64,000 bases of DNA from an uncultured Acidobacteriota bacterium (GTDB lineage Bacteria > Acidobacteriota > Vicinamibacteria > Fen-336), in the NCBI GenBank assembly GCA_963740655.1, contig CAVUFF010000011.1, forward strand, positions 502,834-566,833, given 5' to 3'. Both the position numbers and the translations under genes were made by a program. The notes under the pieces were generated by a model. The model ran no database searches, had not been told where the DNA came from, and worked only from the letters and a program-made list of their open reading frames with translations. Below are positions 1,291 to 30,756 of the stretch, piece by piece. Numbering within the stretch: the stretch's first letter is position 1; each line of letters begins with the position of its first letter.

Positions 1291-1322
1291 GCGTGTCTCC
1301 ACTCGACCGACTGCTGGCTCGC

Positions 1323-1583
1323 CTATGAGAGGCCGAGGAGCTTCCGGACCTCCTCCGTCTTCGGAATGCGTCCAGAGAGGACGACCTTCCCATCGAAGAC
1401 GATCGCTGGGGTCCGCATCACTCCGAGGTCCGCCATGCGCTCGACCGACTCGGTCTTCTGGACGAGGCAGTCCAGATGCGCTTCGTCCACGACGTGACGA
1501 ACGACCCGGAGCGTCTCGTGGCAGCGAGCGCACCCGGGTCCCATCACCTCGATCACGTTCACCGTTGTCGTCATCTGCTCCAC
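1323..1583 (-). CDS. Thioredoxin-fold redox-active disulfide protein (CXXC). Small arsenic-operon-associated type.
   Basis: 86 aa with a GPGCARCHE CXXC motif. Sits between arsR and the permease on the same strand with 3-30 bp spacing. Confidence 0.7.
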   Translation of the reverse strand: MEQMTTTVNVIEVMGPGCARCHETLRVVRHVVDEAHLDCLVQKTESVERMADLGVMRTPAIVFDGKVVLSGRIPKTEEVRKLLGLS

Positions 1584-1586
1584 CTT

Positions 1587-1988
1587 TCAGGATGCCGCCC
1601 GCCCCAAGCCGAATCGCCCGAGGTCGAGACCGGCCTCGCACAGGTCGGTCCGTGACACCCGTCGCAGCTTGCGGACGATGCGCTCGTCCTGACGCACGAC
1701 CGCGTCGCCTCCGATCTGGCCCCAGACGTGGTCAAGGAGAGCGCATGCCTCTGGTGCGACGGCCAGGCGGTACGTGACCCAGCGCCCATCCCGCCGCTCG
1801 TCGGCAAGACCGGCCCGCTTCAGGTCGGCCAGGTGCTCCGAGACGGTGGACACGGGCGCGCCCAGGGCCGCCGCGGCTTGACAGACGCAGAGCCCGCCGG
1901 AGCGAAGCATGGCGAGGAGCCGGAGTCGAGTGGGATGCGCCAGGACCTTCAGCGTGCCCGTGAGCTGCGCGAGCGGACTCGTGGTCAT
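1587..1988 (-). CDS. arsR: ArsR/SmtB-family metalloregulator
   Basis: HTH with an LCVCQ metal-binding motif, plus AHPTRLRLLAML and RDGRWVTYRL. These are classic ArsR signatures. Confidence 0.85.
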   Translation of the reverse strand: MTTSPLAQLTGTLKVLAHPTRLRLLAMLRSGGLCVCQAAAALGAPVSTVSEHLADLKRAGLADERRDGRWVTYRLAVAPEACALLDHVWGQIGGDAVVRQDERIVRKLRRVSRTDLCEAGLDLGRFGLGRAAS

Positions 1989-2004
1989 TTCTTCTCTCTC
2001 CTCT

Positions 2005-2793
2005 TCACACGGTCACGGCCGGCCGGATCTTCTCGAAGATGGCCCGTAGGCGCGTCCGGTAGGCGACCCTGAATGCTTCCTCGTCCTCAGCGAGCGGGCG
2101 CACCGGCACCAGGTCGATGAGCTCGGCAGCCGACAAGCCCGATTCCGTCATCGCGCGGAGGGCTCCCCTGACCATGTGGTCCATGCCATCGGCCGCGGCA
2201 CCGCTTCGGAGACCGAAGCCCTCCGCAAGCGACAGCAGCTCGTAGAACTGGAACCACAGGTAAGTCGGGCCCATGCCCGTGAGCAGGGCGTAGGCCTCGA
2301 GGTCGGATTCGGCCACCTCAGGTGCGTCGCCGAGCGGCGTCATCAGCCTCGCGAGCGCTTCGCGGTCCGCTGCCGTGAGCCCCGGCGCGTACGCGGCAGG
2401 GTTGAAGCCGGCGCCGACGATCGATGGGGCGTTCGGGATCACGCGCGCGACGCGGGTTGACGGACCCAGCGCTGCGGAAATCTCGCCGATCGTGAGCTTG
2501 GGAGCCAGCGACACCACCAGGGACGCCGCGGACAGCCGTCCGCGCAGCTCGGCCAGGACGGTCCGCAGGGCCGGCGGGTGCAACGCCAGAAAGACGACCC
2601 GTTGACCGGCGGGCACGAGGTTGTCGCCGAGGACGGTCACGGCGTCCGGGGCGATGGCGCGCACGGCATCGAGGGCCGTGGCCGACGTGTCGCTGACCAC
2701 GACCCGCGCAGGCCGGTGTGCGGAACGCGACCAACCCTTGAGGAAGACGCGCGTGACGCGGCCCCCGCCGATGAAACCGACCGAGGGTGCCAT
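2005..2793 (-). CDS. Pyrroline-5-carboxylate reductase (ProC)-like NADP oxidoreductase
   Basis: N-terminal Rossmann motif (VGFIGGGRV). Length and C-terminal region are ProC-like. It abuts arsR on the same strand. Confidence 0.55.
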   Translation of the reverse strand: MAPSVGFIGGGRVTRVFLKGWSRSAHRPARVVVSDTSATALDAVRAIAPDAVTVLGDNLVPAGQRVVFLALHPPALRTVLAELRGRLSAASLVVSLAPKLTIGEISAALGPSTRVARVIPNAPSIVGAGFNPAAYAPGLTAADREALARLMTPLGDAPEVAESDLEAYALLTGMGPTYLWFQFYELLSLAEGFGLRSGAAADGMDHMVRGALRAMTESGLSAAELIDLVPVRPLAEDEEAFRVAYRTRLRAIFEKIRPAVTV

Positions 2794-2992
2794 CTGATCC
2801 CTCCCCTGGAATGCGGGCCGCCGTCATTTCGGCGCTCCCCGAAACGACGGACTGCAACCGCCGCGCCAGCCATAAGGTCTTGATTCATCGGGTCCCTTGG
2901 CGGACGGGAGGCGCACGGCCTGCGTGGCGCGGGACGCGCAACGAACGGATTACCGCTTCTTCGGCGTTGACGGCATCCCTGGAGTCGGATAT

Positions 2993-3366
2993 ATGGATAC
3001 CCGTATGGCCTCGCAGGTGCTCGACGTCCGGTCCTTCTCCCGCCTGTTCAAGGCGCTGGGCGACGAGACGCGGCTCCGCATCGTCGCGCTGCTCTCCCAC
3101 GGCGAGCTGTGCGTCTGCCATCTCGAGGAGGCGCTCGCGGCTGTCCCAGCCCAAGGTCTCGCGCCACCTGGCCAGCCTGCGGGCGGCCGGTGTGGTCGAG
3201 ACCGGCGCGACGGGACCTGGGTGTACTACCGCCTCATGCGCCAGCCGGACGCCGACTGCGAGCGGCAGCTCCGGGGGCTCGTCGCGACCTTCGCCAAGCG
3301 CATCGCGTGCTCCGCAAGGACCTGGAGCGCCTCGTCAAGGTCCGCGGTCCGGAGTCCTGCAAGTAG
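2993..3366 (+). pseudogene. arsR: arsR (second copy), disrupted by about 3 single-base frameshifts
   Basis: Frame A reads MDTRMASQVLDVRSFSRLFKALGDETRLRIVALLSHGELCVCHLEEAL. Frame B then reads LSQPKVSRHLASLRAAGVVET. Frame A resumes with RRDGTWVYYRLMRQPDADCERQLRGLVATFAKR. A third frame gives LRKDLERLVKVRGPESCK with a stop at 3366. Confidence 0.7.
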
Positions 3367-3387
3367 CACGCCTCGAAAGGAGCGCTC

Positions 3388-3901
3388 ATGGAGCCGTACA
3401 ACGTCCTCTTCCTCTGCACTGGCAACTCGGCGCGCAGCATCATGGCCGAGGCGCTCCTGAACTACTGGGGCCAAGGGCGGTTCCGCGCGCTTCAGCGCCG
3501 GCAGCCAGCCGAAGGGCGAGGTCCATCCGCTGACGCTGGAGACGCTGGAGCGGACGCACTTGCCCGACGGACGGCGCTGCGCAGCAAGAGCTGGAACGAG
3601 TTCTCCGGCCCGGAGCGCCCCGAAGCTCGACTTCGTGTTCACCGTGTGCGGCAACGCGGCGAAGGAGCAGTGCCCCTACTGGCCGGGCCAGCCGATGACC
3701 GCGCACTGGGGCGTGGACGACCCCGCCGCGGTCGAGGGCACGCTCGAGGAGCAGCGCCGAGCCTTCGAGCGCGCGCTGCGCGAGCTGGACGCCCGGATCA
3801 AGCTCTTCATCAGCCTGCCCATCGACTCGCTCGACAAGATGGCCCTCCAGGAGAGGCTCCGGGACGATCGGCCGCACTCCCGCGACGAAGGACTGAGGTG
3901 A
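3388..3901 (+). pseudogene. arsC: arsC (LMW-PTP/thioredoxin-coupled arsenate reductase), disrupted by about 3 frameshifts
   Basis: MEPYNVLFLCTGNSARSIMAEALLNYWGQGRFRA is followed by three frame switches (FSAGSQPKGEVHPLTLETLERTHLP, then LRSKSWNEFSGP, then APKLDFVFTVCGNAAKEQCPYWPGQPMTAHWGVDDPAAVEG). Joined, they reconstitute a canonical ArsC. The ribosome-binding site GAAAGGAG sits before the ATG. Confidence 0.75.
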
Positions 3902-3922
3902 CGACCGGACGCGGCCAAGCGG

Positions 3923-4996
<1,074 letters not shown>

Positions 4997-5364
4997 GCCG
5001 CCTCGTGCACGATGCTGAGCGTGCTTCTGCGGCCTACGCGGCGCCAGGGGACTCCTATCGAGTCGCGATCGTACGGGACGCATCGTCAGCGGGAGTGACG
5101 GTGAAGTTTAGGGCAGGGCCCGACTGAACGTCTCCACGCGAGGCTGAGACTGCATCGGCCACCGCCCCTGGACATCGAAAGGACTCGGACGACGCGCCCC
5201 AAGAGAGCCGGGACGGGGCGGGCTCGAGGCCCCCTCAGCGACCCAGGCTACCCGCCGACCGGCCCCTCTGCCGCGATCATTACTGGACGTCTCCTTGGGG
5301 TCCAACGACCAGCCCCGCAGCGGTGAACGCCTCAACCTCAGGTCGAGTGGCGCTGACCACGCCC

Positions 5365-6777
5365 CTAGGCGCGGACGGCGCCCGCGCCGGCCGCGAAGGC
5401 GCGCTCGTTCAGTGTCAGGAGCGCCGGCTTGTGGCGCAGCGCCTGGCGGATCGCGGTGAGGTAGGTCTCTTCGGGGAAGAGGCGAGTCGCTTCGCAGAGC
5501 GCCCCGAGCGCCACGACGTTCTTGGCCATCATGAAGCCGAGCTCCTGCGCCAGCGCCGAGCACGGCACGCCGTGCACCCGCACCCGCGGGTCGAGCTTCG
5601 GCGGATCCGCTACCACCGAGCGATCGTAGACGGCCACTCCGCCCGGGACGACGGCCGGTCCGAAGCGGGCGAGGCTCGGGGCGTTGAACGCCACGAGCGC
5701 GTGCGGCGCGGGCGCCGCGGGCGACAGCACCTCGCGCTCGGCCACCCGCACGTCGGCGTACGAGGTGCCGCCGCGCGACTCGGGCCCGTAGCTCGGGATG
5801 TGCGTGGCGTCGAAGCCCTCGTTGATCGCCGCCCGCGCGATCAGCATCGCCGCGGTCTGGGCTCCGTCGCCGCCCGCCCCCGCGAGCTTCAGGGCGACGT
5901 CGGGGCCATAGAGCTGCCTCGGGAAGCCCTGGCAGAAGCGCGGCGCGGGCTCGGCGCCGGCGCCCACCGCCGCGGCGACCGTCGCCGGCTCGAAGCTCGG
6001 CCGCCGCCACTCGCTCCAGGGCTCGCAGGCCACGTCCTTCTTCACTCCCAGCGGGAACACCTTGGTCATCTCGTCCCGCACCCAGCACTCCGCCTCGTGC
6101 GGCGTCTTGCCGAGGTGGAGCGGGCACTCCGCGAGCACCTCGACGAACGCGAAGCCGCGGTCGTCCGCCTGCAGCGCGAGCGCCTTCTTGATCGCCTTGC
6201 GGGCCTTGACGCGCTGCTTGGGGTCGTAGAGCGCGACGCGCTCGACGTAGCTCGTGCCGTCGAGCTGGGCCACGAGCTCGGCCATCTTGATCGGCTGGCC
6301 CATCATGCGCCCGCGCCCCGTGGGAGAGGTGGCGGTGCGCTGGCCCATCAGTGTGGTCGGCGCCATCTGCCCGCCCGTCATCCCGAAGACCGCGTTGTTG
6401 ACGAACACCACGCTCAGCGGGATACCGAGCTGGCACGCGCTTATGATCTCGGCGAGCCCGATCGAGGCGAGGTCGCCGTCTCCCTGATAGCTGATCACCA
6501 CCGCGCCGGGGTTGGCGAGCTTGTGGCCGAGCGCGACCGCCGGCGCGCGGCCGTGAGCGGCCTGGGTATGGCCGACGTCCAAATAGTAGTAGAGGAACAC
6601 GCTGCAGCCCACCGGCGAGATCGCGACGGTGCGGTCCTGGATCCCCAGCTCCTCGATCGCGTCGGCCAGGTAGCGGTGTACGAGCCCGTGACCGCAGCCG
6701 GGGCAGTAGTGGGTGCTCTTCCCCTTCAGGCCCTCGCCCTTCGCGTGGCGCTCGAAGCGCTCGTAGTAGACGCTCAT
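5365..6777 (-). CDS. 2-oxoacid:ferredoxin oxidoreductase, fused beta (TPP-binding) and gamma subunit
   Basis: N-terminal TPP-binding region (HYCPGCGHG, YQGDGDLASIGL). C-terminal gamma/POR domain (KLAGAGGDGAQTAAMLIARAAINEGFDATHIPSYGPESRGG). A 4-bp ATGA overlap with the upstream gene. Confidence 0.8.
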   Translation of the reverse strand: MSVYYERFERHAKGEGLKGKSTHYCPGCGHGLVHRYLADAIEELGIQDRTVAISPVGCSVFLYYYLDVGHTQAAHGRAPAVALGHKLANPGAVVISYQGDGDLASIGLAEIISACQLGIPLSVVFVNNAVFGMTGGQMAPTTLMGQRTATSPTGRGRMMGQPIKMAELVAQLDGTSYVERVALYDPKQRVKARKAIKKALALQADDRGFAFVEVLAECPLHLGKTPHEAECWVRDEMTKVFPLGVKKDVACEPWSEWRRPSFEPATVAAAVGAGAEPAPRFCQGFPRQLYGPDVALKLAGAGGDGAQTAAMLIARAAINEGFDATHIPSYGPESRGGTSYADVRVAEREVLSPAAPAPHALVAFNAPSLARFGPAVVPGGVAVYDRSVVADPPKLDPRVRVHGVPCSALAQELGFMMAKNVVALGALCEATRLFPEETYLTAIRQALRHKPALLTLNERAFAAGAGAVRA

Positions 6778-8168
6778 GCGAACAGCTCCTGTGGTGTCTC
6801 GGCGCGCACGCCGCCCAGCACGGCATCGATGATCTCGCGCTCGGCCGGCAGCACTCCGCCGTAGCTGCGGAGCGACTCGATGCGCGGTAGCGGGACGCCC
6901 GCCGCCGTCTCAGCGTGGCTCAGCGCGAGCCGCAGCTCGTCTTCGAGCTGCCCGTGGCTGGCCTCGACCACGATCAGCCGCTGCAGCCGCGGAAGCAGAG
7001 GCAGCAGGAAGCGGATCGGGAACGGCCACAGCGTCTGCGGGCGCAACAGGCCGGCGCGCACGCCCTGCGCGCGCAGGGTCTCGACCGCGCCCTTGGCCAT
7101 CCGCGCCGGCGTGTTGCAGGCGATCAGCACCACCTCGGCGTCTTCGCAGTGGACGAGCTCCGCACGCTGCTCGCGCCGCGACATCTCCGCGTACTTCGCC
7201 ACGAGGTGCCGGTTGTGGGCCTCGAGCTCCGGCTCGGACAGGTGGATCGAGGAAATCAGGTTGTGCCGGTGGCTCGCGTCTCCCCAGACGGCCCAGCCCG
7301 GAAGGCCGGGCTTGGTGAACGTGCGGGGCAGCTCGACCCGGCCCGTCACCTGGCCGAGGTAGCCGTCGGCGACCAGGATCACGGGCGTGCGGTACTCGAA
7401 GGCGAGCTCGAAGGCCAGCAGGGTGAAGTCGAGCATCTCCTGCGGCGACGAGGGCGCGAGCACGATCGCCTGGGTGTTGCCGTGGCCGAGCCCGCGGCAG
7501 GCGAGCTTGATGTCGGCCTGCTCCGGGGCGATGTTGCCGAGGCCGGGGCCCCCGCGCATCACGTTGACGAACACGCCCGGCAGCTCCGCGCCGATCATGT
7601 ACGAGAGGCCCTCGAGCATCAGGCTGAACCCGGGCGATGAGGTGAAGGTGAGCGAGGGCAGGCCGGCCGCTCCGCAGCCGTACATCAGGTTCACGGTCGC
7701 CACCTCGCTCACGGCCTGCAGGAAGACGCCGTCGAGCTTCGGAAGCAGCTTCGCCATCAGCTCGGCGCCCTCGCTCGAGGGCGTGATCGGGTAGCCGAAA
7801 AAGTGGCGGCACCCTGCGAGGAGCGCCCCGATCGCGGAGGCGTGCGTGCCCTTCGTGACGATGGGCACGCTCTGCGGAAGCGGCAGCCGGACCGGCGGCA
7901 CCGTGGCGGCGGAGGCCTCGTCGGGCGCCCGTGCCGGGACGAGGCCCGCCTCGGGACGCATCGCGTAGGGCTCGGGGCAGGCGTCGAAGCACAGCGCGCA
8001 GCCCGAGCAGTTGGCGAGATCCACGAGGACGGGGACGAGCCCCGTCAGCGGGTGGATGTCGTGGCCGGCCTCGATGCAGCCTCGCGCGCAAGCTTCGATA
8101 CAGCGCCCGCAACCTTTGCAGTACTCGGGGGCCAGCAAAGGCTTTGCAGCTGAGCGAGTTGAGGGCAA
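6774..8168 (-). CDS. 2-oxoacid:ferredoxin oxidoreductase, fused delta (2x[4Fe-4S] ferredoxin) and alpha subunit. Start codon uncertain.
   Basis: CKGCGRCIEAC...CSGCALCFDACP ferredoxin motifs are followed by alpha-subunit domains (PITPSSEGAELMAKL, GVFVNVMRGGPGLGN). The track ORF extends to 8285, but that N-terminus is low-complexity. A TTG near 8168 or 8138 is more plausible. Confidence 0.75.
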   Translation of the reverse strand: MPSTRSAAKPLLAPEYCKGCGRCIEACARGCIEAGHDIHPLTGLVPVLVDLANCSGCALCFDACPEPYAMRPEAGLVPARAPDEASAATVPPVRLPLPQSVPIVTKGTHASAIGALLAGCRHFFGYPITPSSEGAELMAKLLPKLDGVFLQAVSEVATVNLMYGCGAAGLPSLTFTSSPGFSLMLEGLSYMIGAELPGVFVNVMRGGPGLGNIAPEQADIKLACRGLGHGNTQAIVLAPSSPQEMLDFTLLAFELAFEYRTPVILVADGYLGQVTGRVELPRTFTKPGLPGWAVWGDASHRHNLISSIHLSEPELEAHNRHLVAKYAEMSRREQRAELVHCEDAEVVLIACNTPARMAKGAVETLRAQGVRAGLLRPQTLWPFPIRFLLPLLPRLQRLIVVEASHGQLEDELRLALSHAETAAGVPLPRIESLRSYGGVLPAEREIIDAVLGGVRAETPQELFA

Positions 8169-8217
8169 GTGGCTCCTCCGCGGACCATCTCGTGCAAGAG
8201 GCGGGCCACGTTGCCGA

Positions 8218-10266
8218 TCACTCCCCGGCTGGCGAGTCGCTCCTCCGCCGGCGCAGCAGGCGCGCGTAGACCGGCCGATTCGCACCCAGGTGCTGGGCCG
8301 AGGCGCGGCCGCTCAGCCATGCGGCGTCCATCGGGTAGACGTCGGGGTCGAAGATCACCAGGTAGAAGTGCCAGACCAGGATCGCGAGCGTCGCGAGGAT
8401 CGCCTCGTACCAGTGGATCGCCGTCGCGGCGTCCATCACCCAGGTCGGGAGCACGCGCAGGCTCCAGCTCTCGAACCACAAGAGGAAGCCCGAGCCGGCC
8501 ATCACCAGCGTGCCCCATACGAAGGCCCAGTACTCGATCTTCTCCGCGTAGCTGAAGACGCCGAAGCCCGGGCGCTCGGCGCGGCGGCCGAGCGCCCAGC
8601 GGAAGAACGCGACCAGGTCCTGCGCGTCCTTCAGGCGCGGCAGCATGCGGCGCAGGGCGTGGCGGTCGCGCCGCACGCGCAGCAGGTGCACGCCGTGGTA
8701 CGCGCAGGCGAGACACAGCAGGACTGCCGCGACACGGTGGACGAGGCTGCGCAGCGCGAGGTGGCCCTCGAAGGCGACGAGCGGCGCCGCCCACCACGAC
8801 TCGGGGAACTTGAGCGCGAAACCGGTCACCACCAGGACCGGGAAGCTGAGCACGACGAGGCCGTGGGCGATCCGGAAGTTGCGGTTCATGCGCGGAACGG
8901 TCCCCGCGGCGCCGTGGCCCGCGCCGCGGCGCCGGAGCTTGCGCAGGAAGTCGAGGCCGTTGTGCAGCAGCATGAAGCCGAGCGTCGCCGGGATCAGCGT
9001 GACGTAGGCGAGGCGCACGAAGCGCACCACGGCGTGCTCGCTGCGGCTGTTGGTCGTGACGTGCACGGGGCCGATCCCGAAGCGCTCCCCGGCACCCGGG
9101 TGGCATGCGCCGCAGGTCTTCGCGAGGTTCGCGGGGTGCACGGTTGAGCGCGGGTCGCTCGAGGGCAGGATGTTGTGGATCCCGTGGCAGGACGCGCAGT
9201 TCGCGACGCGGAGCGAGCCCGCACGCCCGGCGAGGCCGTGGAAGCTGTCCTGGAAGGCCGGCACCTTGTCGCGCGGCAGGTTGTACTTCGCGACCAGCCG
9301 CTCGTCCGCGTGGCAGCGGCCGCAGGTGACGCTCGACACGCGCGCGGGGTTCACGAGCGAGCCGGGCTCGGAGGGCGCCAGGATCGAGTGCTCGCCGTGG
9401 CAGTCCGTGCAGACCGGCGCGCCGTCGTGGCCGCGCGCGAGGGCCTGCCCGTGGATGCTCGCCGTGAAGGCGTCCTTCACCTGCGCGTGGCACTGGCCGC
9501 AGGTGGCGGGGACGTTCCAGCGGTTGATGCGCGACGAGGCGTCCTTCGCCTTGCCGATGTCGTGCGCGCCGTGGCAGTCGGAGCAGGAGGCGGCCTTGTC
9601 GTTGCCGCCGGCGAGCGCCTTGCCGTGAACGCTCAGCTGGTAGGCCTCGATCGGGCGCGCCAGGCCGAGCTGGTGCCGCGCCAGGAAGTCCGGGTTCGCG
9701 TGGCACCGGCCGCAGGTCTTCGGCAGGTTGCGCTTCGCGACCTCGGAGGCGGGGTCGCTGCGCGGCTTGAACTCGTGGATCGCGCCGTGGCAGCTGCCGC
9801 AGCCCGGCACCTCGGAGCCGCCGTTGCGCCGGCCGTGGACGCTCTTCTCGAGCGCGGCCTTCTCGTCGGCGTGGCATGTGGCGCACGAGGGCCTGGCCGC
9901 GGGCGCGGGGTGGGGGTAGTCCTTGACCTTATCGTGGCAGTCGCCGCAGCCGAGCGTCGCGTGGGCGCTGGTGGCGCGCTTGTCCTTGTCGACGAACAGG
10001 CTCGCGCCCTTCTCCGAGTGCAGGTCCTTGTCGCCGTGGCAGGCGAGGCAGTCCGCGTCGGCGGCCAGCGCCGCGCGGCCCGCCAGCAGCAGCACGGCGA
10101 GCACGCAGGCGCGCGCGCCGAAGTGAAACGAGACGCTTCCGCCTGGCGGACCCGAAGGCCCGCCGCGGATCACAGGATTCTCCGGTTGCGTGCGGCCCGG
10201 AGCAGCTCCTCGCGGAAGTCCGGATGCGCTACGGCGACGAGCGCCTGGGCGCGCTCGCGCAGGCAC
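8218..10266 (-). CDS. Multiheme cytochrome c (11 CXXCH) fused to a C-terminal HydC/FdnI-type cytochrome b membrane domain (CbcL-like)
   Basis: Eleven CXXCH motifs (CLACH, CGDCH, CATCH, CGSCH, CGRCH, CSDCH, CGQCH, CTDCH, CGRCH, CASCH, CGACH). A signal peptide. C-terminal 4-5 TM helices with conserved His (HNGLDFLRKL, AHGLVVLSF, YHGVHLL, HWYEAILA). The start may be a GTG near 10173 rather than the ATG at 10266. Confidence 0.8.
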   Translation of the reverse strand: MPARARPGARRRSASGLPRGAAPGRTQPENPVIRGGPSGPPGGSVSFHFGARACVLAVLLLAGRAALAADADCLACHGDKDLHSEKGASLFVDKDKRATSAHATLGCGDCHDKVKDYPHPAPAARPSCATCHADEKAALEKSVHGRRNGGSEVPGCGSCHGAIHEFKPRSDPASEVAKRNLPKTCGRCHANPDFLARHQLGLARPIEAYQLSVHGKALAGGNDKAASCSDCHGAHDIGKAKDASSRINRWNVPATCGQCHAQVKDAFTASIHGQALARGHDGAPVCTDCHGEHSILAPSEPGSLVNPARVSSVTCGRCHADERLVAKYNLPRDKVPAFQDSFHGLAGRAGSLRVANCASCHGIHNILPSSDPRSTVHPANLAKTCGACHPGAGERFGIGPVHVTTNSRSEHAVVRFVRLAYVTLIPATLGFMLLHNGLDFLRKLRRRGAGHGAAGTVPRMNRNFRIAHGLVVLSFPVLVVTGFALKFPESWWAAPLVAFEGHLALRSLVHRVAAVLLCLACAYHGVHLLRVRRDRHALRRMLPRLKDAQDLVAFFRWALGRRAERPGFGVFSYAEKIEYWAFVWGTLVMAGSGFLLWFESWSLRVLPTWVMDAATAIHWYEAILATLAILVWHFYLVIFDPDVYPMDAAWLSGRASAQHLGANRPVYARLLRRRRSDSPAGE

Positions 10267-11510
10267 TTGCCGTGCAGGTCGGCGACGCCGTGCTCGGTCA
10301 CCACGTAGTGGACGTCGGCGCGCGTCGTGACCACTCCCGAGCCCTCGGCGAGCGCGTCCACCACGCGCGACAGCTTACCTCCCTTGGCGGTGGACGGCAG
10401 CACGATGATCGGCTTGCCGCGCTTCGAGCGGGCGGCGCCGCGGATGAAGTCCGCCTGCCCGCCGACGCCCGAGTAGATCGAGCGCCCGATCGAGTCGGCG
10501 CAGACCTGGCCGGTGAGGTCGACGGCGAGCGCGGAGTTGATCGCGACCATGCGCTCGTTGCGCGAGATGACGAAGGGGTCGTTGACGTAGTCCGTGGGAT
10601 GGAACTCGACGAACGGGTTGTTGTGCAGGAAGTCGAAGCAGCGCTTCGTGCCGAGCACGAACGAGGCCACGATCTTGCCGCGGTGCAGCGTCTTCGCCTC
10701 GCCGTTGATCACGCCGGCCTCGAACAGCTCGACGACGCCATCCGAGAACATCTCGGTGTGGATCCCGAGGTTGCGGCGGCCCTTGAGCTCGTGCAGCAGC
10801 GCGTCCGGCACCTCGCCGATGCCCATCTGCAGCGTCGAGCCGTCCTCGACCAGCTCGGCGGCTCGGCGGCCGATCGCCTTCGAGACGTCGCTCACGGCGC
10901 GCGGCACGGGCAGCTCGAGCACCGGCTGGTCCACCTCGACCGCGTAGGTCAGCCGCGAGACGTGGATGAAGCAGTCCCCGAGCGTGCGCGGCATGCGGGC
11001 GTTGACGAGCGCTACGACGTCGCGCGCCGACTCGGCGGCGGCCTTGGTGCACTCGACCCCGACGCCGTAGGAGCAGAAGCCGTGCTCGTCGGGCGGCGAG
11101 ATGTGGACGAACGCCACGTCGACCGGCAGCCGGCCCGACGTGACGAGGCGCGGGATGTCGGAGAGGTGGATCGGCACCCAGTCGGCGCGGCCTTCGTTCA
11201 CGGCCTCGCGCACGTTGCCGCCCGCGAAGAGCGCGCGGTGGCGGAACGAGCGCGCGTGGGCGGGGTCCACGTGCGGCGCCTCGCCCAGCGCCATCAGGTG
11301 CACGAGCTCGACGTCGCGCAGCTCGTCGGCGCGCGCGACCAGCGCGCGCACCAGCGGCTCGGGGTTGCCGCAGCCGGGGTGGACCCAGACGCGGTCGCCC
11401 GAGCGCACGACGCGCACGGCGTCGCGGGCGCTCGCGAGCTTGCCACGGTACTGCGCGGTCCAGCGGGCGGACGTCGCCGTGGCGGCGGCCGGTTCGATCA
11501 GGCACTCCAT
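10170..11510 (-). CDS. Acetyl-CoA hydrolase/transferase family protein (4-hydroxybutyrate/succinyl-CoA:acetate CoA-transferase-like)
   Basis: MECLIEP start with ATG at 11510. Family motifs GIGEVPDALL and GGQADFIRGA. The track ORF's long N-terminal extension overlaps the radical SAM gene and is an artefact. Confidence 0.85.
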   Translation of the reverse strand: MECLIEPAAATATSARWTAQYRGKLASARDAVRVVRSGDRVWVHPGCGNPEPLVRALVARADELRDVELVHLMALGEAPHVDPAHARSFRHRALFAGGNVREAVNEGRADWVPIHLSDIPRLVTSGRLPVDVAFVHISPPDEHGFCSYGVGVECTKAAAESARDVVALVNARMPRTLGDCFIHVSRLTYAVEVDQPVLELPVPRAVSDVSKAIGRRAAELVEDGSTLQMGIGEVPDALLHELKGRRNLGIHTEMFSDGVVELFEAGVINGEAKTLHRGKIVASFVLGTKRCFDFLHNNPFVEFHPTDYVNDPFVISRNERMVAINSALAVDLTGQVCADSIGRSIYSGVGGQADFIRGAARSKRGKPIIVLPSTAKGGKLSRVVDALAEGSGVVTTRADVHYVVTEHGVADLHGKCLRERAQALVAVAHPDFREELLRAARNRRIL

Positions 11511-12655
11511 GTCACGCTCCGTTCGGCGGGCGCCTGCGGCTGGTAGGCGCACCAGGGGTCGGTGGCGAGGTGGTCGCCGGTGAGCGCGAACGCGCGCGCG
11601 CGCGAGCCGCCGCAGCTCGCGCGGAACTCGCAGCGGCCGCAGCGGCCGCGCAGGCGGTCGGGGTCGCGCAGCTCGCGGAACACCGGCGACTCGCGGTACG
11701 CGGCCGCGAGGGACGTCTCGCGCACGTTGCCCGCGCGCAGCGGGAGGAAGCCGCTCGGGTAGATCTCGCCGAGGTGGGACACGAACAGGAAGCCTTTGCC
11801 GGAGTTGACAGCCTTCGGCGACAGGCCGATCGGGGCGTGCGCCATGGTCTCCGACGCGGCTCCGGGCGCGCCCCCGTGCTTCGCGATCCAGCGCCTGTAC
11901 TGCGGCGCCTCGGTGACCTTCAGCACGAAGCGGCGCTTCGACTCGATCGTCCAGAGCGCCTCGTAGAGGCGCTCGCAGGCGTCGGCGCCGAGCCCGCCCA
12001 GCAGGGTCCCGCGTCCCATCGGCACGAGGAAGAAGACCTCCCAGAACACGATGCCTAGGTTCGCCACGAAGTGCCCGAGCTCGGCGAGGTAGGGCGCCGT
12101 CTCGCCGCACACCGTGGAGTTGATCTGGAGCGGAAGGCCGAGCTCCTGCGCCCAGCCCGCGGCCTGCATCGTGCGGTCGAAGGCTCCCGCGGCCAGACGG
12201 AATCCGTCGTGCAGCGCCGCGCGCGGGAAGTCGAGCGAGAATGCGATCTGGTCGAGGCCGGCGTCCTTGAGCTCGGCGAGGCGGTCGCGCGTCAGCTGCT
12301 CGGTCGCGGCAGGAATCGTCGCGACGCGCAGGCCGCGCGCCTTGCCGTGGCGGACGAACTCGGCGAGGTCGGGCCGGTTGAGCGGGTCGCCGCCGCTCAG
12401 GATCAGGAGCGGCGTGCCCATGTCGGCCACCGAGTCGACGAGCCACAGACCCTCGGCGGTCGTGAGCTCGCCGGGGCTGCGTCCCGGCTGGGCCGAGGCC
12501 CGGCAGTGGCGGCACGCGAGCTCGCAGGCCTGCGTGGTCTCCCAGATCACGAGCAGCGGCGCCTTTTCGAAGTCGGGGATCGCGAAGGGGGGCGGGCCGC
12601 CCGGGCGTCGCGTCGTTCCGGCTGGGTGTCCCATTTCGCCGGCCATCAAGAGCAA
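11498..12655 (-). CDS. Radical SAM/SPASM-domain protein, AhbD/NirJ-like (heme-cofactor radical SAM subfamily)
   Basis: PLLVIWETTQACELACRHC (CX3CX2C in the ACxLACRHC context). C-terminal Cys-rich SPASM-type region (CGRCEFRASCGG...WCAYQP). The true start is probably the ATG at ~12646 or ~12634; the track start is a TTG. Confidence 0.7.
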   Translation of the reverse strand: MLLMAGEMGHPAGTTRRPGGPPPFAIPDFEKAPLLVIWETTQACELACRHCRASAQPGRSPGELTTAEGLWLVDSVADMGTPLLILSGGDPLNRPDLAEFVRHGKARGLRVATIPAATEQLTRDRLAELKDAGLDQIAFSLDFPRAALHDGFRLAAGAFDRTMQAAGWAQELGLPLQINSTVCGETAPYLAELGHFVANLGIVFWEVFFLVPMGRGTLLGGLGADACERLYEALWTIESKRRFVLKVTEAPQYRRWIAKHGGAPGAASETMAHAPIGLSPKAVNSGKGFLFVSHLGEIYPSGFLPLRAGNVRETSLAAAYRESPVFRELRDPDRLRGRCGRCEFRASCGGSRARAFALTGDHLATDPWCAYQPQAPAERSVTWSA

Positions 12656-12773
12656 CGGCCGTGCCGATCGACATCAGCGCATTTGCGGGCGATCCCGCCG
12701 CCAGCAGGCGCAACTCGGACGCCGTGCGCCGCGGCGCGCGCAAGAACTGCGGCGCGGGGACGAGCGGCGCAGA

Positions 12774-13016
12774 CTACGCGTGCAGCCGCTGGTAGCGCTC
12801 GAGCAGGAGCTCCTTCGGCTCGGCCGGATCGACGAGGATGCAGCTGGTGGGGCACACGTCGACGCAGCGCGGAGTGTCGTGGGCGCCCACGCACTCCGTG
12901 CAGAGCGCCTGGTCGACCACGAAGGTCGTGCCCGTGTTGCTGATCGCCGTGTTGGGGCACTCCGGCTCGCACGCAGCGCAGTTGATGCAATCGGCTTCGA
13001 CGATCTTCATGGCCAT
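12774..13016 (-). CDS. 2x[4Fe-4S] ferredoxin
   Basis: MAMKIVEADCINCAACEPECP...CTECVGAHDTPRCVDVCP gives two cluster-binding motifs. 80 aa from the internal Met. Confidence 0.8.
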   Translation of the reverse strand: MAMKIVEADCINCAACEPECPNTAISNTGTTFVVDQALCTECVGAHDTPRCVDVCPTSCILVDPAEPKELLLERYQRLHA

Positions 13017-13119
13017 GGAACACCTCGCGTTCGGCGGCGGTAGTGCACGGATCGCGCCAGGTCTACCGAGCCGTCGCGCGGGCACGCGGGTTGCACCTTC
13101 ACGATGCGGAGGTGCCCCC

Positions 13120-14082
13120 ATGGCCGCGCAGGCGCTTCAAGTCCGCAGAGTTCTCTGCGCCACCGACTTCTCTCACTTCTCGGCCGACGCGCTTCGCTAC
13201 GCCGCTTCGATCTGCCGGACGCAAGGCGGCGAGCTCAGCGTCGTCCACGTCCACCCCCGCGAGCTGCCGATGGCCGCGGAGTTCGCGTACCTCTCGCCGG
13301 CCCCGCTCGACCTTCCGGAGCGAGCCGGGCTCGAGTCGAGGCTCGAGGCCTTCGCCGAGCCGGCCCGCGCCCTCGGCGTGCGCACACGCTGCCGCGTCCT
13401 AGAGGGGCGGCCGTCGCGCGAGATCGCGCAGCTGGCGGAGGAGCTGGAAGCCGACCTCGTGGTGGTCGGCTTCCGCTCGGACGCGCGGCTCGAGCACTTC
13501 CTCGCGGGTTCGGTGACAGAGGAGCTGCTGCGCAGCGCGCCGTGCCCGGTGCTGACGGTGCGGCATGGCGTGGGAGGGCCTCCGGACGCGGGCGTGCCCT
13601 TCCGCCGGGTCCTCTGCGCCGCGGATCTCATCGAGCCGGGAGCGGAGACGGTCTCCTACGCGGTCAAGCTCGCCGAGGCGTTCCACGCGGAGCTGACCCT
13701 GCTGCACGCGCTCGAGCAGGTGCCCGAGTTCGAGCCCGGCGCGCTGGTGGAGATCCAGGCGTTGCGGCAGGCCCTGGCGGAGGAGGCCCGGGGCCTTCTG
13801 CGTGCGGCGGTGCCCGAAGCGGACAGGAAGCAGCTGGCGGTGCGCGACCTCGTCCGAGCGGGAAGCGCCCACGAGCGGATCCTGGACGTGGCCCGAGAGG
13901 AGCGCTCGCAGCTGATCGTGCTCGGAGCGCGGAGCCACCGGTCCCTGGGCCGGCTGCTGTTCGGCTCGACTTCCCGCCGCGTGCTGCGCGACGCGCCCTG
14001 TCCGGTGCTGGTCGTGCCGGAAACCACGGCCGCCGACGCCCGCTCCGAGGAGCGGGCGTCGCGCGAGCCAGTGCGGGTCTGA
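13120..14082 (+). CDS. Tandem universal stress protein (2x UspA domain)
   Basis: Two repeats with VLCATDFS...PVLTV and VLCAADLIE...PVLVV architecture. ATG at 13120. Confidence 0.8.
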   Translation: MAAQALQVRRVLCATDFSHFSADALRYAASICRTQGGELSVVHVHPRELPMAAEFAYLSPAPLDLPERAGLESRLEAFAEPARALGVRTRCRVLEGRPSREIAQLAEELEADLVVVGFRSDARLEHFLAGSVTEELLRSAPCPVLTVRHGVGGPPDAGVPFRRVLCAADLIEPGAETVSYAVKLAEAFHAELTLLHALEQVPEFEPGALVEIQALRQALAEEARGLLRAAVPEADRKQLAVRDLVRAGSAHERILDVAREERSQLIVLGARSHRSLGRLLFGSTSRRVLRDAPCPVLVVPETTAADARSEERASREPVRV

Positions 14083-14094
14083 GCCGACGCCAGG

Positions 14095-14415
14095 CTACAA
14101 CCGGAACCGCTCCACGGCGTCGCGCACGATGCCGGCGACGTAGCCGGGCTCGGCCTCGTCGCGCCCGAACGACAGCTGGAGGGACGCACGCCGGCCGCTG
14201 ATGCGGACGACGATCTCTCCCGCGTCGCCACGAGGCTCGATCCGCACGCAAAAGGCGGAGCGCGCCCCGCCCAGGGCTTTCTGCACCTCGTCCCTGAGCA
14301 TGGGCACGAGCGCCTCGTCGTCGAGCAGCGTCGCGCCCAGATCGCCCGTGATCTCGAGCGGGCGGTTGTGCGACTCGGCGACCTCCAGGCCGCTGCTGTG
14401 GCCGACTGCGAGTGT
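14095..14415 (-). CDS. Hypothetical small protein (106 aa)
   Basis: MTLAVGHSSGLEVAESHNRPLEITGD...RDAVERFRL. This is the only non-Arg-rich, balanced-composition part of the long track ORF 14095..15702. No recognised motif. Confidence 0.3.
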   Translation of the reverse strand, partial: TLAVGHSSGLEVAESHNRPLEITGDLGATLLDDEALVPMLRDEVQKALGGARSAFCVRIEPRGDAGEIVVRISGRRASLQLSFGRDEAEPGYVAGIVRDAVERFRL

Positions 14416-14636
14416 CATCTTGACTCTCGGGCTCCGGTCGAGGGCCGTCCGTCCACGAGCCCGATTCCTTTCACTTGCCAGACAGAGCAATTCGCGTGCC
14501 TCGCTCAGGGCGTTCGCGGCGGCCGCGCCGGAAAGGGCACGCGGCCCGCGCCGCAAGGTCTGCCGGTACGCCAGGTCTTGACCTGCAACGTTTGCAGCCC
14601 GGACAAGGGGGCCGGCTGCGCCCCTCAAGGTCGTGC

Positions 14637-15869
14637 TCAAGAACACGTAGCGGCCGCGCGCACGTTGCGGGCGACCATCGCCTTCGCCCCGCGGCGGAGC
14701 AGCGCGAGCTTGAGACTCTGCAGCGGGTAGCGGCGCTCCGAGAGGCTGCGGCACTCGTCCGGCAGCAGCACCAGGCTCACGTGGACGTTCGGGGCGACGC
14801 CGATCGGCAGCCCGCGCTCCATGCACGCCTCGTAGAGGCGCCGGAACACGGGCACGAGCGGCGCCGCCTCGGGCGGCGGCATGTCCGCGTAGTCCGTTCC
14901 CGCGAGCGGCCGGAACACGCACACCGTCGGGATCGCGCCCACCGAGGTGATCCAGTCGATCGCCTTGATCGACGACTCGGGCGGCTCGAGCCCCGCGATG
15001 ATCTCGCCGTTCGTCACCCACGGCTCGTGGCGCGGGCCCCTGCGGCCGAGCGCCGCGCAGTAGGCGACCGCGTCGAGGTAGCGCTGCAGGCCGTACTGGC
15101 GGTGCTTGCCGGGGCAGACGTCCTTGAACAGGCAGGGGTCGAAGATCTCGAAGCAGAAGGAGACGCGGTTGACGCCGAGCTCGCGCAGCGCGTCGTAGCG
15201 CTTGAGGTCCGCGTGGGGCGGCGTCTGGACGCCGACCAGGATCCCGACCTCGCGCTTGATGCGCCGGATGTAGGGCTCGAGGATGTCGAGGTAGCTCTCG
15301 CCCTCGTAGTGGCCGGTGTTGAAGTCCACGTAGGTGAGCCCGGACTCCGCGCGCGCGGCGCGCACCACCTCCATCACCTCCTCGACGGACTTGTCGTCCG
15401 CGTCGTCCACGCCGAGGTTGAGGCCCACCGAGCAGAACTTGCAGTTGGACTTCTGCGGCTTCTCCGTCCAGTACTCGCAGACCTTCGCCGGATAGACGCC
15501 GAGGTAGGTGCCCTGCAGCGTGCCGACGCGGGTCATCGGCTTGCCGGTCGAGGTCTTGCGGTCGTACCAGGCCGGACGCGGCGACAGCTCGAGCGAGGAG
15601 ATCGCCTCGCCGTCGCGCTCGATCAGGTAGGAGCCGTTGCGGCGCCGCAGCACGTAGGGCGAGCGCTGCGCGAAGCGCTCGCTGACCGGGATGTTGGTCC
15701 ACAGGCCCCCCGGCAGCACGGCCTCGAGCCCGCTGCCGAGGCCGGCGCGGGTCCGGAGCACGCGGCGGCCGCCGTCCTGCTCGACGAGGCAGCTGTCGTC
15801 GATCCGCATGCCGCTGCAGTAGAGGTCGAGCTTCAAGAGCGCCGGGTTGCGGCGAACGTCCAGGTCCAT
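14637..15869 (-). CDS. Radical-SAM-like enzyme with non-canonical Cys spacing and an extra N-terminal domain
   Basis: Motif VCEYWTEKPQKSNCKFCSVG (C-x11-C-x2-C) precedes a TIM-barrel-like region. ATG at 15869 is preceded by a GGAGCA ribosome-binding site. Family assignment is uncertain. Confidence 0.5.
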   Translation of the reverse strand: MDLDVRRNPALLKLDLYCSGMRIDDSCLVEQDGGRRVLRTRAGLGSGLEAVLPGGLWTNIPVSERFAQRSPYVLRRRNGSYLIERDGEAISSLELSPRPAWYDRKTSTGKPMTRVGTLQGTYLGVYPAKVCEYWTEKPQKSNCKFCSVGLNLGVDDADDKSVEEVMEVVRAARAESGLTYVDFNTGHYEGESYLDILEPYIRRIKREVGILVGVQTPPHADLKRYDALRELGVNRVSFCFEIFDPCLFKDVCPGKHRQYGLQRYLDAVAYCAALGRRGPRHEPWVTNGEIIAGLEPPESSIKAIDWITSVGAIPTVCVFRPLAGTDYADMPPPEAAPLVPVFRRLYEACMERGLPIGVAPNVHVSLVLLPDECRSLSERRYPLQSLKLALLRRGAKAMVARNVRAAATCS

Positions 15870-15991
15870 TCGTGCTCCTCGCGCTCCAGTATCGGGGAGC
15901 GCGCTCATGACGGCTGTCATGCCGGGCGTGGAACGCCCGCGGCGGCTCGCCGGCGGGGAGGTGGGGGCCGGCGGGCCGCCGCGGGAAACGG

Positions 15992-16816
15992 CTAGCTGGA
16001 TCTCAGGTTGAAGGTGATGACCACGGAGAGGATGAAGCCGGTCGGCTCGCCGTTCAGGAGCAGCGGCTGGTAGCGCCACTGCCTGACCGCACTCATGGCC
16101 GCCTCGTCGAACAGCGGGTGCCCGCTCAGCACCTTCACGGTCTTCACGACGCCGCGCACGTCCACCTCGGCCTCGACCACGACGATCGCGCCGAGGCGGG
16201 CTGCGGCGGCGAGGTCCGGATACACCGGCTCGACGCGGCGGATGATGCGCGGCTGGGCGATCTTGCCGCCGATCCTCACGACCTGCGCCGGCGGCGGGGG
16301 CAACGCGGTGGGCAGCCCGCCGACGACGCCGCCGACGACCCCGCCGGGCACGCCGCCCTCGACGCCGCCCGCCGCTCCGCCCTCGACGCCGAGGTCGAGG
16401 CTTTCCTCGGGCTGCACCACGTTCGGGATGTCGATCGGGGCGACGAACGCCGCGGTGGGCTGCACGACCCTCGGCGCCGCCTTGATGGCCGTCCGCGCCG
16501 CCGACGGTGGAGGGGGAGGTGGCGGCGGGGCCGCGATCTCGAGCGGCTGGACGAAGAAGGCCTTGAGCGCCTCCTGGCTCGGCAGGTAGTCGTAGAACAC
16601 GATCGGCACCAGGACGATCGCCACCACGAGCACGAGGTGCAGGCTCATGGAGACCGCGAGCGTGGCGCTGCGGCGGCCGAAGACCGACGCGTGCTCAGTG
16701 AGCATCAGGGTCGGCGGCGGCGTCGGCGGCGCCTTCGGCGCGAGCGGTGCCGGCGCCTCGAGCTTCGGTTCGGTCGGCCTGCGGACCGCCTCGACGGTGG
16801 CAGTAGCGTTGCTCAT
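15992..16816 (-). CDS. TonB-family energy transducer (C-terminal TonB domain)
   Basis: N-terminal TM anchor. Pro-rich linker (APPPPPPPPS). C-terminal domain YPDLAAAARLGAIVVVEAEVDVRGVVKTVKVLSGHPLFDEAAMSAVRQWRYQP. Confidence 0.75.
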   Translation of the reverse strand: MSNATATVEAVRRPTEPKLEAPAPLAPKAPPTPPPTLMLTEHASVFGRRSATLAVSMSLHLVLVVAIVLVPIVFYDYLPSQEALKAFFVQPLEIAAPPPPPPPPSAARTAIKAAPRVVQPTAAFVAPIDIPNVVQPEESLDLGVEGGAAGGVEGGVPGGVVGGVVGGLPTALPPPPAQVVRIGGKIAQPRIIRRVEPVYPDLAAAARLGAIVVVEAEVDVRGVVKTVKVLSGHPLFDEAAMSAVRQWRYQPLLLNGEPTGFILSVVITFNLRSS

Positions 16817-17130
16817 GCGTGTCTCCCGTCCGACTCATGCAACAAAGCGCGTGCCAGCGCCGAAGCCGCGCAACCCGCTCACGACACGCGATCTGCCGCA
16901 CGGCGAGGGCGGCTCCGCCGAAGGAATTGCGTGTGCGCGCGTCCGCGGCGCGCGATTTTCTGCGCGCCGCAGCGCGTCGGGTTTGCCCGCGCGCGCGCTG
17001 CGTCGCCACTCACTTGCGCCGCCGCGGGTTGGCTACAGCCTCGCGGGCGCCTTGTTCCACGGCCCGGTGCATCGGGACGGTACGTAGATTGCTTGATCTA
17101 CGTTCGGTTCGATTGAATTGGGGTGATCAC

Positions 17131-21365: not shown

Positions 21366-21492
21366 GACGCCTCCTGCGCGCAAACGGCCTCGACAGCAGA
21401 TCGGGTGCAAACGAGAGGCCAGAGGGACGCGGTCCGGCAAGCCGCGCCCTGACGGCGCCCGCTCGACAGAAGGCTCGCGCCGGGCGCGAATC

Positions 21493-30579: not shown

Positions 30580-30756
30580 GGAGCGAGCAGTATATCGGGT
30601 GACAGCGCTGTCCCCGCGCGGAGACGGAGCCCGCGGTGCCGCCGGGCGTTACACTCGGAGACACCCGCCAGGTCAACGACTTGGCGGCACCGGCTCGCTC
30701 AGGCTACCGGCACGTGCGTTGCAACTTTGGCTAGGGGCGACAAGCACCTCGGGACG

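Follow-up and report, generated by a model that had tools for sequence, protein, structure and literature searches.

A predicted sigma-54-controlled gene island joining a 2-oxoacid oxidoreductase, a CoA-transferase, a radical SAM enzyme and a multihaem cytochrome in an uncultured acidobacterium

A 64,000-nucleotide stretch of contig CAVUFF010000011.1 from an uncultured Acidobacteriota bacterium (assembly GCA_963740655.1; the whole stretch is called the window below) carries six minus-strand genes encoding a YfhL-type ferredoxin (fdx), a radical S-adenosylmethionine (SAM) enzyme, a coenzyme A (CoA)-transferase, a CbcL-type c/b cytochrome and a 2-oxoacid:ferredoxin oxidoreductase (OFOR) divided over two fused polypeptides. 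The explanation that we favour, and regard as probable though by no means secure, is that this cluster would be a sigma-54-controlled island of co-regulated modules, used under oxygen or energy limitation, and neither a single operon nor a single pathway. All of its components come from known families, while their arrangement is new and lineage-restricted. The evidence lies in candidate promoters that divide the cluster into units, in the way these units are kept or lost among related loci, and in the company that each gene family keeps elsewhere.

Gene layout and candidate promoters

Genes were called with Pfam, NCBIfam and a start-codon scan of the region (Table 1). The physical description in the original prediction is borne out: six minus-strand genes, three start/stop overlaps, eleven CXXCH motifs and the delta-alpha and beta-gamma fusions of OFOR are all present, and all six family assignments hold in the family searches. 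The overlaps are an ATGA at 6774-6777 shared by the delta-alpha stop and the beta-gamma start, a GTGA at 10170-10173 shared by the CoA-transferase stop and the cytochrome start, and 13 nucleotides (nt) at 11498-11510 between the radical SAM stop and the CoA-transferase start. The compact operon that had been proposed survives in part: the tight packing is real, but a single operon is not favoured, as two gaps, of 128 nt between fdx and the radical SAM gene (139 nt counted to its conserved ATG) and of 49 nt between the cytochrome and OFOR, hold conserved sigma-54-type elements that make three units more likely. The start calls of the cytochrome and the delta-alpha chain agree with database proteins P0001 and P0241 (100% identity and coverage), the cytochrome being identical to P0001 over 651 amino acids (aa) and the delta-alpha chain beginning, as a 464-aa protein like P0241, at a TTG after a GGAGGAG Shine-Dalgarno sequence. 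Look-ups by exact sequence returned no record for the cytochrome or the beta-gamma chain. The radical SAM gene has a single start codon that all loci share, the ATG at 12634, and this is probably the true start. The fdx ATG at 13016 follows a GAGG Shine-Dalgarno sequence, and the cysteines of the protein (10, 13, 16, 20 and 39, 42, 51, 55) form two [4Fe-4S] motifs.

Table 1. Genes of the cluster, adjoining genes and predicted sigma-54-type elements in the window
Feature	Position	Strand	Evidence or remark
YfhL-type 2x[4Fe-4S] ferredoxin (fdx), 80 aa	12774-13016	-	NF033683, 88.4 bits (cut-off 86)
Radical SAM/SPASM protein, TIGR04053 family	11498-12646	-	TIGR04053, 424 bits (cut-off 395)
CoA-transferase, 446 aa	10170-11510	-	AcetylCoA_hydro N- and C-terminal domains (PF02550, PF13336)
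c/b cytochrome, 651 aa	8218-10173	-	Signal peptide, 11 CXXCH, PF01292 (Ni_hydr_CYTB)
OFOR delta-alpha fusion, 464 aa	6774-8168	-	Fer4, POR_N, PFOR_II
OFOR beta-gamma fusion, 470 aa	5365-6777	-	TPP_enzyme_C, POR
Tandem universal stress protein (Usp), two Usp domains	13120-14082	+	PF00582, 204.5 bits in two stretches
Conserved 107-aa open reading frame (ORF)	14095-14418	-	Sigma-54-type element upstream
Predicted element toward fdx, GGCGCGATCCGTGCA	13044-13058	-	Conserved in 6/6 clade loci; surrounding intergenic sequence variable
Predicted element toward divergent Usp, GGCACGCGGGTTGCA	13081-13095	+	Core invariant in 6/6 clade loci
Predicted element toward radical SAM gene, GGCACGGCCGTTGCT	12651-12665	-	Strict consensus match; conserved across loci
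Predicted element in cytochrome/OFOR gap, TGGCCCGCCTCTTGCA	8193-8208	-	Conserved in window, L166, L001, L006
Predicted element before 107-aa ORF, GGCACGCGAATTGCT	14486-14500	-	Strict consensus match about 65 nt upstream of ORF

The -24/-12 consensus of sigma-54 promoters is TGGCAC-N5-TTGCW. Five elements in the window have GG at -24, GC at -12 and the canonical spacing, each of them upstream of a gene, and four are conserved in four to six related loci. The 103-nt spacer between Usp and fdx, aligned over six loci, shows two conserved blocks amid variable sequence, TGGCGC-N5-GTGCA toward fdx and GGCAC-N5-TTGCA toward Usp on the opposite strand, both of which fit this consensus. In front of the radical SAM gene, CGGCACGGCCGTTGCTC lies 12-17 nt before the conserved ATG and is nearly invariant in six loci (L166 has two spacer-base differences); it is kept even in L001, which has no fdx. 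Conserved CGCAnnTCTTGCG-type repeats 60-95 nt upstream may be activator binding sites. Such matches exceed expectation in the window as a whole, with 4 observed against 0.18 expected for the strict GGCAC-N5-TTGCW, 6 against 1.09 for GGCRC-N5-KTGCA and 3 against 0.25 for TGGC-N7-TTGCA. From the consensus matches and their conservation we infer that fdx, the radical SAM - CoA-transferase - cytochrome genes and the OFOR genes more likely form three tandem sigma-54 units, with the Usp gene and the 107-aa ORF as putative members of the same regulon. Separate promoters would explain the independent loss or retention of OFOR and fdx among the related loci. NtrC-type Sigma54_activat genes are present in two of these, L005 and L166.

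Other signals say little about transcription. At 72% GC, neither a scan for sigma-70 promoters, which returned no sites, nor a scan for terminator-like sites, which returned five, all intragenic and near the shuffled background of 2.1, is informative on operon structure. Rfam matched nothing in the window at its gathering thresholds, which leaves the two gaps without any known riboswitch or leader. Base composition lends no support to a recent horizontal transfer, GC content being a uniform 70-75% across the region.

Three further sigma-54 consensus matches lie elsewhere in the window, at 2853-2868 (-), 30709-30723 (+) and 21406-21421 (-). The first is about 60 nt upstream of a string of NADP-oxidoreductase, ArsR, thioredoxin and ArsP genes, and the second about 70 nt upstream of an ATG with GGAGG before it. 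Sigma-54 promoters may be frequent in the source genome.

Conservation of the cluster and surroundings of the cytochrome

The neighbourhood comparison upholds the expectation that the cluster is co-conserved, in L001, L005, L166, L167 and L171, which together with the window make up one narrow clade (protein identity 72-92%), probably of Vicinamibacteria, the class of the MAGs that are its nearest named database matches. The divergent Usp gene adjoins the cluster in all six loci and forms its upstream border, while the downstream border in the window consists of unrelated arsenic-resistance-type genes. Gene content varies within the clade (Table 2). The fdx gene, at 80-92% identity in L005, L166, L167 and L171, is absent from L001; the radical SAM/CoA-transferase overlap is seen in the window, L001 and L167. 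Where longest-ORF calls were unreliable at high GC, as in L006, loci were read by strand-specific ORFs and tblastn. Read in this way, L006 carries an NrfH-like gene, a 19-haem c/b cytochrome, an 11-haem cytochrome and OFOR, without radical SAM and CoA-transferase genes. Cytochrome and OFOR are adjacent in five contigs (window, L001, L166, L171, L006). Downstream of the cytochrome, L006 and L166 have beta-gamma homologues of 84-87% identity, and that of L001 is similar over matched segments. L168, at 74% identity, has ordinary Rieske/cytochrome b surroundings, and such genes were also found in L002 and L004. The gene content of clade and outside loci therefore indicates a cluster that is conserved in one narrow clade only and is modular inside it.

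Table 2. Gene content of the six clade loci
Locus	Usp	fdx	Radical SAM	CoA-transferase	NrfH-like	Cytochrome	OFOR
Window	yes	yes	yes	yes	no	yes	delta-alpha + beta-gamma
L167	yes	yes	yes	yes	no	yes	no
L001	yes	no	yes	yes	no	yes	one 936-aa ORF
L005	yes	yes	yes	yes	yes	yes	no
L166	yes	yes	yes	yes	yes	yes	delta-alpha + beta-gamma
L171	yes	yes	yes	yes	yes	yes	present (fragmented assembly)

Genes without a shared function might simply have been joined by rearrangement in one lineage and kept together through the close kinship of the contigs. The confinement of the linkage to a single clade at 72% identity or above would fit such an origin, as would the differences in gene content among its members and the derivation of several contigs from one ENA sample series (ERZ250394xx-ERZ250395xx). 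However, the start/stop overlaps are preserved, the same promoter type is conserved before each unit while the flanking intergenic sequence has diverged, the gene order is stable despite the insertion or loss of an NrfH-like gene, and CoA-transferase and OFOR have come to be paired independently in distant lineages. Pure coincidence is unlikely in view of the conserved overlaps and promoters, and we regard adjacency without shared function as rather improbable.

The cytochrome has a hydrophobic N-terminal segment (residues 14-32), eleven CXXCH motifs at residues 42-358 and a PF01292 domain (52.6 bits against a cut-off of 30.1) with four to five predicted transmembrane (TM) helices, and the histidines of the TM region are invariant in 36 homologues. 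Its redox domains are accordingly modelled here as periplasmic and membrane-embedded, and Pfam together with motif and TM analysis revealed no recognisable cytoplasmic ferredoxin-docking domain. A sequence search of the PDB gave one weak match only, to a small cytochrome c. With the CbcL/MtrH/MtoC family it has in common an N-terminal periplasmic multihaem c domain and a C-terminal HydC/FdnI-type dihaem cytochrome b domain. Haem counts in that family range from 3 to 23 (PMC6295460). Geobacter sulfurreducens CbcL (GSU0274) has nine haems where the window cytochrome has eleven, and the two are likened by architecture, not by direct sequence comparison.

This cytochrome family is very large, with more than 7,900 proteins at E <= 1e-5. 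A scan anchored on the cytochrome, with one genome per GTDB species, yielded 80 loci at 44-67% identity, nearly all from Acidobacteriota, in which partners were sought by tblastn with the six window proteins and by clustering of neighbours. OFOR adjoins the cytochrome in only one of them, L006 (a Vicinamibacteria metagenome-assembled genome, MAG), and tblastn placed a CoA-transferase or TIGR04053-level radical SAM gene beside it in none of the 80. The other 79 have neither OFOR, CoA-transferase nor a TIGR04053-type radical SAM gene, and their contexts are multihaem or respiratory. The most frequent companion is an NrfH-like cytochrome of about 485 aa (51/80), a partner usual for this mostly acidobacterial subfamily and missing in the window, followed by Crp/Fnr-like regulators (33/80, assigned by eye), a small c-type cytochrome (29/80) and an unannotated protein of about 860 aa (16/80). 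Second c/b cytochromes with 19 and 21 CXXCH motifs stand directly upstream of the 11-haem homologue in L006 (2426-5180) and L057 (6580-9915), which indicates that the family duplicates in tandem.

These surroundings bear on the reading put forward in the original prediction, a dedicated pathway in which OFOR would pass electrons through ferredoxin obligatorily to the c/b cytochrome, and on to the membrane or periplasm, while the CoA-transferase recycled CoA. The common orientation and tight packing of the six genes speak for it, together with the cytochrome-OFOR adjacency in five related contigs and the recurrence of the CoA-transferase-OFOR pairing elsewhere. On the other hand, L005 and L167 keep the rest of the cluster without OFOR, L006 has cytochrome and OFOR without radical SAM and CoA-transferase, 79 of 80 cytochrome homologues have no such partners nearby, and the cytochrome adjoins none of 80 CoA-transferase homologues. 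The OFOR genes appear to sit behind their own conserved promoter element, the cytochrome has no cytoplasmic redox domain able to take electrons from ferredoxin, and the cluster encodes no ferredoxin:quinone oxidoreductase of the Rnf type or Nuo-like kind. Nothing supports direct electron transfer from OFOR to the cytochrome; the dedicated route is not borne out by the comparison, and we consider it distinctly improbable.

OFOR, CoA-transferase and radical SAM families

The OFOR is complete, with domains I-II (alpha), VI with a thiamine pyrophosphate (TPP) site (beta), III (gamma) and V with two [4Fe-4S] motifs (delta), the last as two CX2CX2CX3C motifs within the N-terminal 64 residues of the delta-alpha chain, fused to domains I-II. 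It shares with the four-subunit VOR/POR-type enzymes the alpha, beta, gamma and delta domains, the TPP domain and the Fe-S cysteine motifs, but is made of two polypeptides where these have four subunits. The top-scoring model is PRK07119 (VorB), at 389 bits just under its cut-off of 399, with other models far below theirs, and the nearest structure is the alpha subunit of Pyrococcus 2-keto acid:ferredoxin oxidoreductase (1yd7). The fusion pattern had been called uncommon, which is true only against characterised enzymes: the delta-alpha fusion is common in metagenomes, the best 120 database matches to this chain all being Fer4 and POR_N fusions of 448-510 aa, and beta-gamma fusions recur in CoA-transferase-linked loci. 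In L001 (11987-14797) the enzyme is called as one 936-aa delta-alpha-beta-gamma chain, which reflects either an additional fusion of genes or an artefact of assembly.

The CoA-transferase (PF02550 99.6 bits, PF13336 218.9 bits) is by sequence a family-I enzyme of the 4-hydroxybutyrate CoA-transferase (AbfT/Cat2) type. Five AbfT-type PDB entries, among them 2oas, score between 396 and 549 bits (9vag 549, 3eh7 475, 3gk7 396), and E253 aligns with the catalytic glutamate E238 of 3gk7 in a GIH(T/S)EM motif. The succinyl-CoA:acetate CoA-transferases of the Geobacter/AarC type were rejected as a match, since AarC scores about 76 bits and the AbfT-type enzymes 396-549. With AbfT/Cat2 the protein shares full-length similarity and the glutamate, but the window context has no 4-hydroxybutyrate pathway genes.

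With the CoA-transferase as anchor, a scan of metagenomes recovered 80 loci (52-85% identity), in none of which a cytochrome or radical SAM gene adjoins the transferase. Among the 38 loci with 3 kb or more of sequence downstream, 6 have genes for OFOR alpha and fused beta-gamma (41-51% identity) directly after the CoA-transferase, and several further loci carry OFOR homologues elsewhere. The earlier proposal that the CoA-transferase works with OFOR gains from this direct adjacency, with no cytochrome in between. In 31 of 64 loci the CoA-transferase has an alanine dehydrogenase (AlaDH)-like gene as its immediate neighbour, and the order AlaDH-like, CoA-transferase, (separate delta), VorB-type alpha, fused beta-gamma recurs in L115, L104 and L151 and is reversed in L100. 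In L115 the module spans 8901-14685, with a Usp-like ORF after it; its alpha gene scores 545 bits with PRK07119 (cut-off 399) and its AlaDH-like gene 327 bits with TIGR00518 (cut-off 392; the L106 representative reaches 402). Such neighbourhoods give independent support for a transferase that handles OFOR-made acyl-CoA, and suggest an acyl-CoA/acid pair different from that of AbfT. The CoA-transferase-OFOR pair predates the six-gene cluster. A literature search for clusters of AlaDH, 4-hydroxybutyrate CoA-transferase and OFOR found no description.

The radical SAM protein has the core motif CX3CX2C (CELACRHC, residues 41-48) and a C-terminal CX2CX5CX20C motif, while its SPASM domain scores 19.7 bits, under the Pfam cut-off of 21.5. 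It had been described as AhbD/NirJ-like, and the kinship stands: AhbD and NirJ/AhbC share the core and the C-terminal SPASM auxiliary motif and are its best-scoring named relatives. It is not AhbD itself, but a member of TIGR04053 (424.2 bits against a cut-off of 395), a separate uncharacterised family paralogous to AhbD/NirJ; the AhbD model TIGR04545 reaches 295 bits where its cut-off is 500, and the auxiliary motif resembles that of NirJ instead of the CX2CX5CX2CX17C of AhbD (PMC10114771). The identity of TIGR04053 homologues falls from at least 73% (21 clusters) to about 65%, and in L169 and L170, two members from outside the clade, no partner gene accompanies it. A literature search for TIGR04053 found no papers.

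A haem-related role of this enzyme is plausible, though putative. The closest named relatives of TIGR04053 (AhbD, NirJ and AhbC) all act on tetrapyrrole side chains, and 10 of the 80 cytochrome loci have, some 1.9 kb downstream of the cytochrome gene, a gene that is itself AhbD-like (TIGR04545 474 bits, AhbD motif). In L170, from a Planctomycetes MAG, the TIGR04053 gene is divergent from genes for a response regulator and a HemY-type protoporphyrinogen oxidase (6182-9137; TIGR00562 208 bits), the oxidase gene being about 530 nt away, which gives one anecdotal link to haem synthesis. An AhbD-like radical SAM enzyme has in addition been proposed to replace the O2-dependent coproheme decarboxylase under anoxia (PMC10114771).

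The AhbD-like linkage occurs in Terriglobia-type loci, after the NrfH-like gene (L008, L053, L055, L059, L073-L075, L079, L081-L083). In L053 the AhbD-like gene (13887-15152) is followed by genes for a YwiC-like membrane protein and a Crp/Fnr regulator, and YwiC-like genes are found downstream in 7 of the 80 loci.

A second way to tie the modules together would be cofactor maturation, in which fdx, the radical SAM enzyme and the CoA-transferase make or modify a haem or other cofactor of the adjacent cytochrome: the ferredoxin would prime the radical SAM enzyme, the translationally coupled CoA-transferase would activate or remove a carboxylate side chain, and OFOR would be an optional ferredoxin reductase. 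The retention of fdx, radical SAM, CoA-transferase and cytochrome genes together in five of the six clade loci favours this, and so do the radical SAM/CoA-transferase overlap in three loci, the tetrapyrrole-acting relatives, the recurrence of AhbD-like genes beside the same cytochrome family in Terriglobia and the HemY-type neighbour of one TIGR04053 gene. However, the CoA-transferase shares about 60% identity, and the catalytic glutamate, with ordinary 4-hydroxybutyrate CoA-transferases, its homologues pair with AlaDH-like and OFOR genes and not with haem genes, a radical SAM gene adjoins it in none of the 80 other loci, and the out-of-clade TIGR04053 members are not beside cytochromes. We consider this unlikely. 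In its boldest form, the TIGR04053 enzyme, the AbfT-type CoA-transferase and the YfhL ferredoxin would be an undescribed cofactor-tailoring system dedicated to the CbcL-type cytochrome, with OFOR as the low-potential electron source; candidate activities are oxygen-independent haem (coproheme) decarboxylation or a CoA-dependent modification of a haem side chain. If true, this would give TIGR04053 a function and connect 2-oxoacid oxidation with cytochrome maturation in a new way, though we hold it to be a long shot.

Co-regulated modules, flanking genes and related systems

The favoured reading, an island of co-regulated modules, can be put together as follows. The VorB-type OFOR would oxidise a 2-oxoacid to acyl-CoA, with electrons leaving through the fused delta domain to the YfhL ferredoxin, and the AbfT-type CoA-transferase would shift the CoA to another carboxylate; the chemistry of both families is established, and their substrates here are presumed. 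Carbon flux through these two enzymes would need no NAD+. Judged from its architecture, the CbcL-type cytochrome would take electrons from the quinol pool and pass them, over two haems b and eleven haems c, to an acceptor in the periplasm, and the TIGR04053 enzyme, primed by reduced ferredoxin, would probably perform oxygen-independent tailoring of a tetrapyrrole (haem). What joins the modules would be common regulation, responding most likely to a shortage of oxygen or energy, and not direct electron transfer from OFOR to the cytochrome.

Several points weigh against this reading. The sigma-54 promoters are predictions from consensus matches and conservation, and the 64-kb window holds no sigma-54 or activator gene and no GAFTGA-containing ORF. 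That oxygen or energy limitation is the inducing signal is a guess, prompted by the presence of a Usp gene and by enzyme families that are oxygen-sensitive. For TIGR04053 the role is putative, with little context to be had from its two out-of-clade members (L169, L170); OFOR is typed as VorB-like on a score below the cut-off, with a presumed substrate, and the CoA-transferase owes its name solely to its resemblance to 4-hydroxybutyrate CoA-transferases. The organisms behind the clade contigs may all be close relatives, in which case conservation would partly reflect shared ancestry, and the adjacency of cytochrome and OFOR in five contigs, including the differently built L006, could mean a tie closer than co-regulation.

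The 107-aa ORF has no Pfam match; L001, L166 and L171 each have an ORF of 106-107 aa in the corresponding neighbourhood. Between the Usp gene and this ORF, L001, L166, L167 and L171 carry genes for Fer4_11 (NrfC/DmsB-like) and NrfD-family membrane proteins, a HAMP histidine kinase and a Response_reg-GCV_H protein, a block absent from the window. A second radical SAM gene at 14637-16079 (-), of the NF045502 'variant_rSAM' type (207 bits), adjoins a TonB_C gene (15992-16816) and a PAS-LuxR regulator gene (16819-17898), and Radical_SAM genes stand at the equivalent position in L001 and L171. On the other side, the arsenic-resistance-type cluster (238-5127) encodes an ArsP_1 permease, Thioredoxin_3, ArsR and an F420_oxidored-type reductase; its LMWPc ArsC (3388-3987) and ACR3/SBF transporter (4165-4644, continuing in another frame at 4688-4996) look frameshifted and are either pseudogenes or sequence errors. 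Farther away, adjacent ORFs of 109 and 81 aa at 42995-43554 (-) resemble a toxin-antitoxin pair when their translations are inspected by eye.

Soils are rich in Vicinamibacteria and related Acidobacteriota, which are usually taken to be aerobes. A sigma-54-driven island in this lineage would point to a dedicated programme for survival or respiration without oxygen. A literature search combining Vicinamibacteria, multihaem cytochromes and OFOR found no description of the arrangement. The result refines annotation and physiology and does not amount to a new principle; the leads it offers are the AlaDH - CoA-transferase - OFOR module, a TIGR04053 gene beside a haem-rich protein, and five candidate sigma-54 promoters as a small regulon.

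Among known systems, the hypoxia response of mycobacteria offers a likeness. Usp-family proteins belong to the mycobacterial DosR regulon. Under hypoxia these aerobes switch to ferredoxin and ferredoxin-dependent enzymes, including an OFOR, and raise haem synthesis (PMC2799521). The differences are that control here is predicted to be by sigma-54 and there is by DosR, that the phyla are distinct, and that the cluster described here includes a multihaem cytochrome. For the carbon side of the island, the coupling of pyruvate:ferredoxin oxidoreductase (PFOR) to acetate:succinate CoA-transferase in anaerobic protists, and the pairing of succinyl-CoA:acetate CoA-transferase with 2-oxoglutarate:ferredoxin oxidoreductase in Geobacter/Desulfobacter acetate oxidation, match in logic: an OFOR yields acyl-CoA and reduced ferredoxin, and a family-I CoA-transferase hands the CoA on. 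The transferases of these routes belong to the Cat1/AarC/ASCT subfamily, whereas the protein encoded in the window is of the AbfT type.

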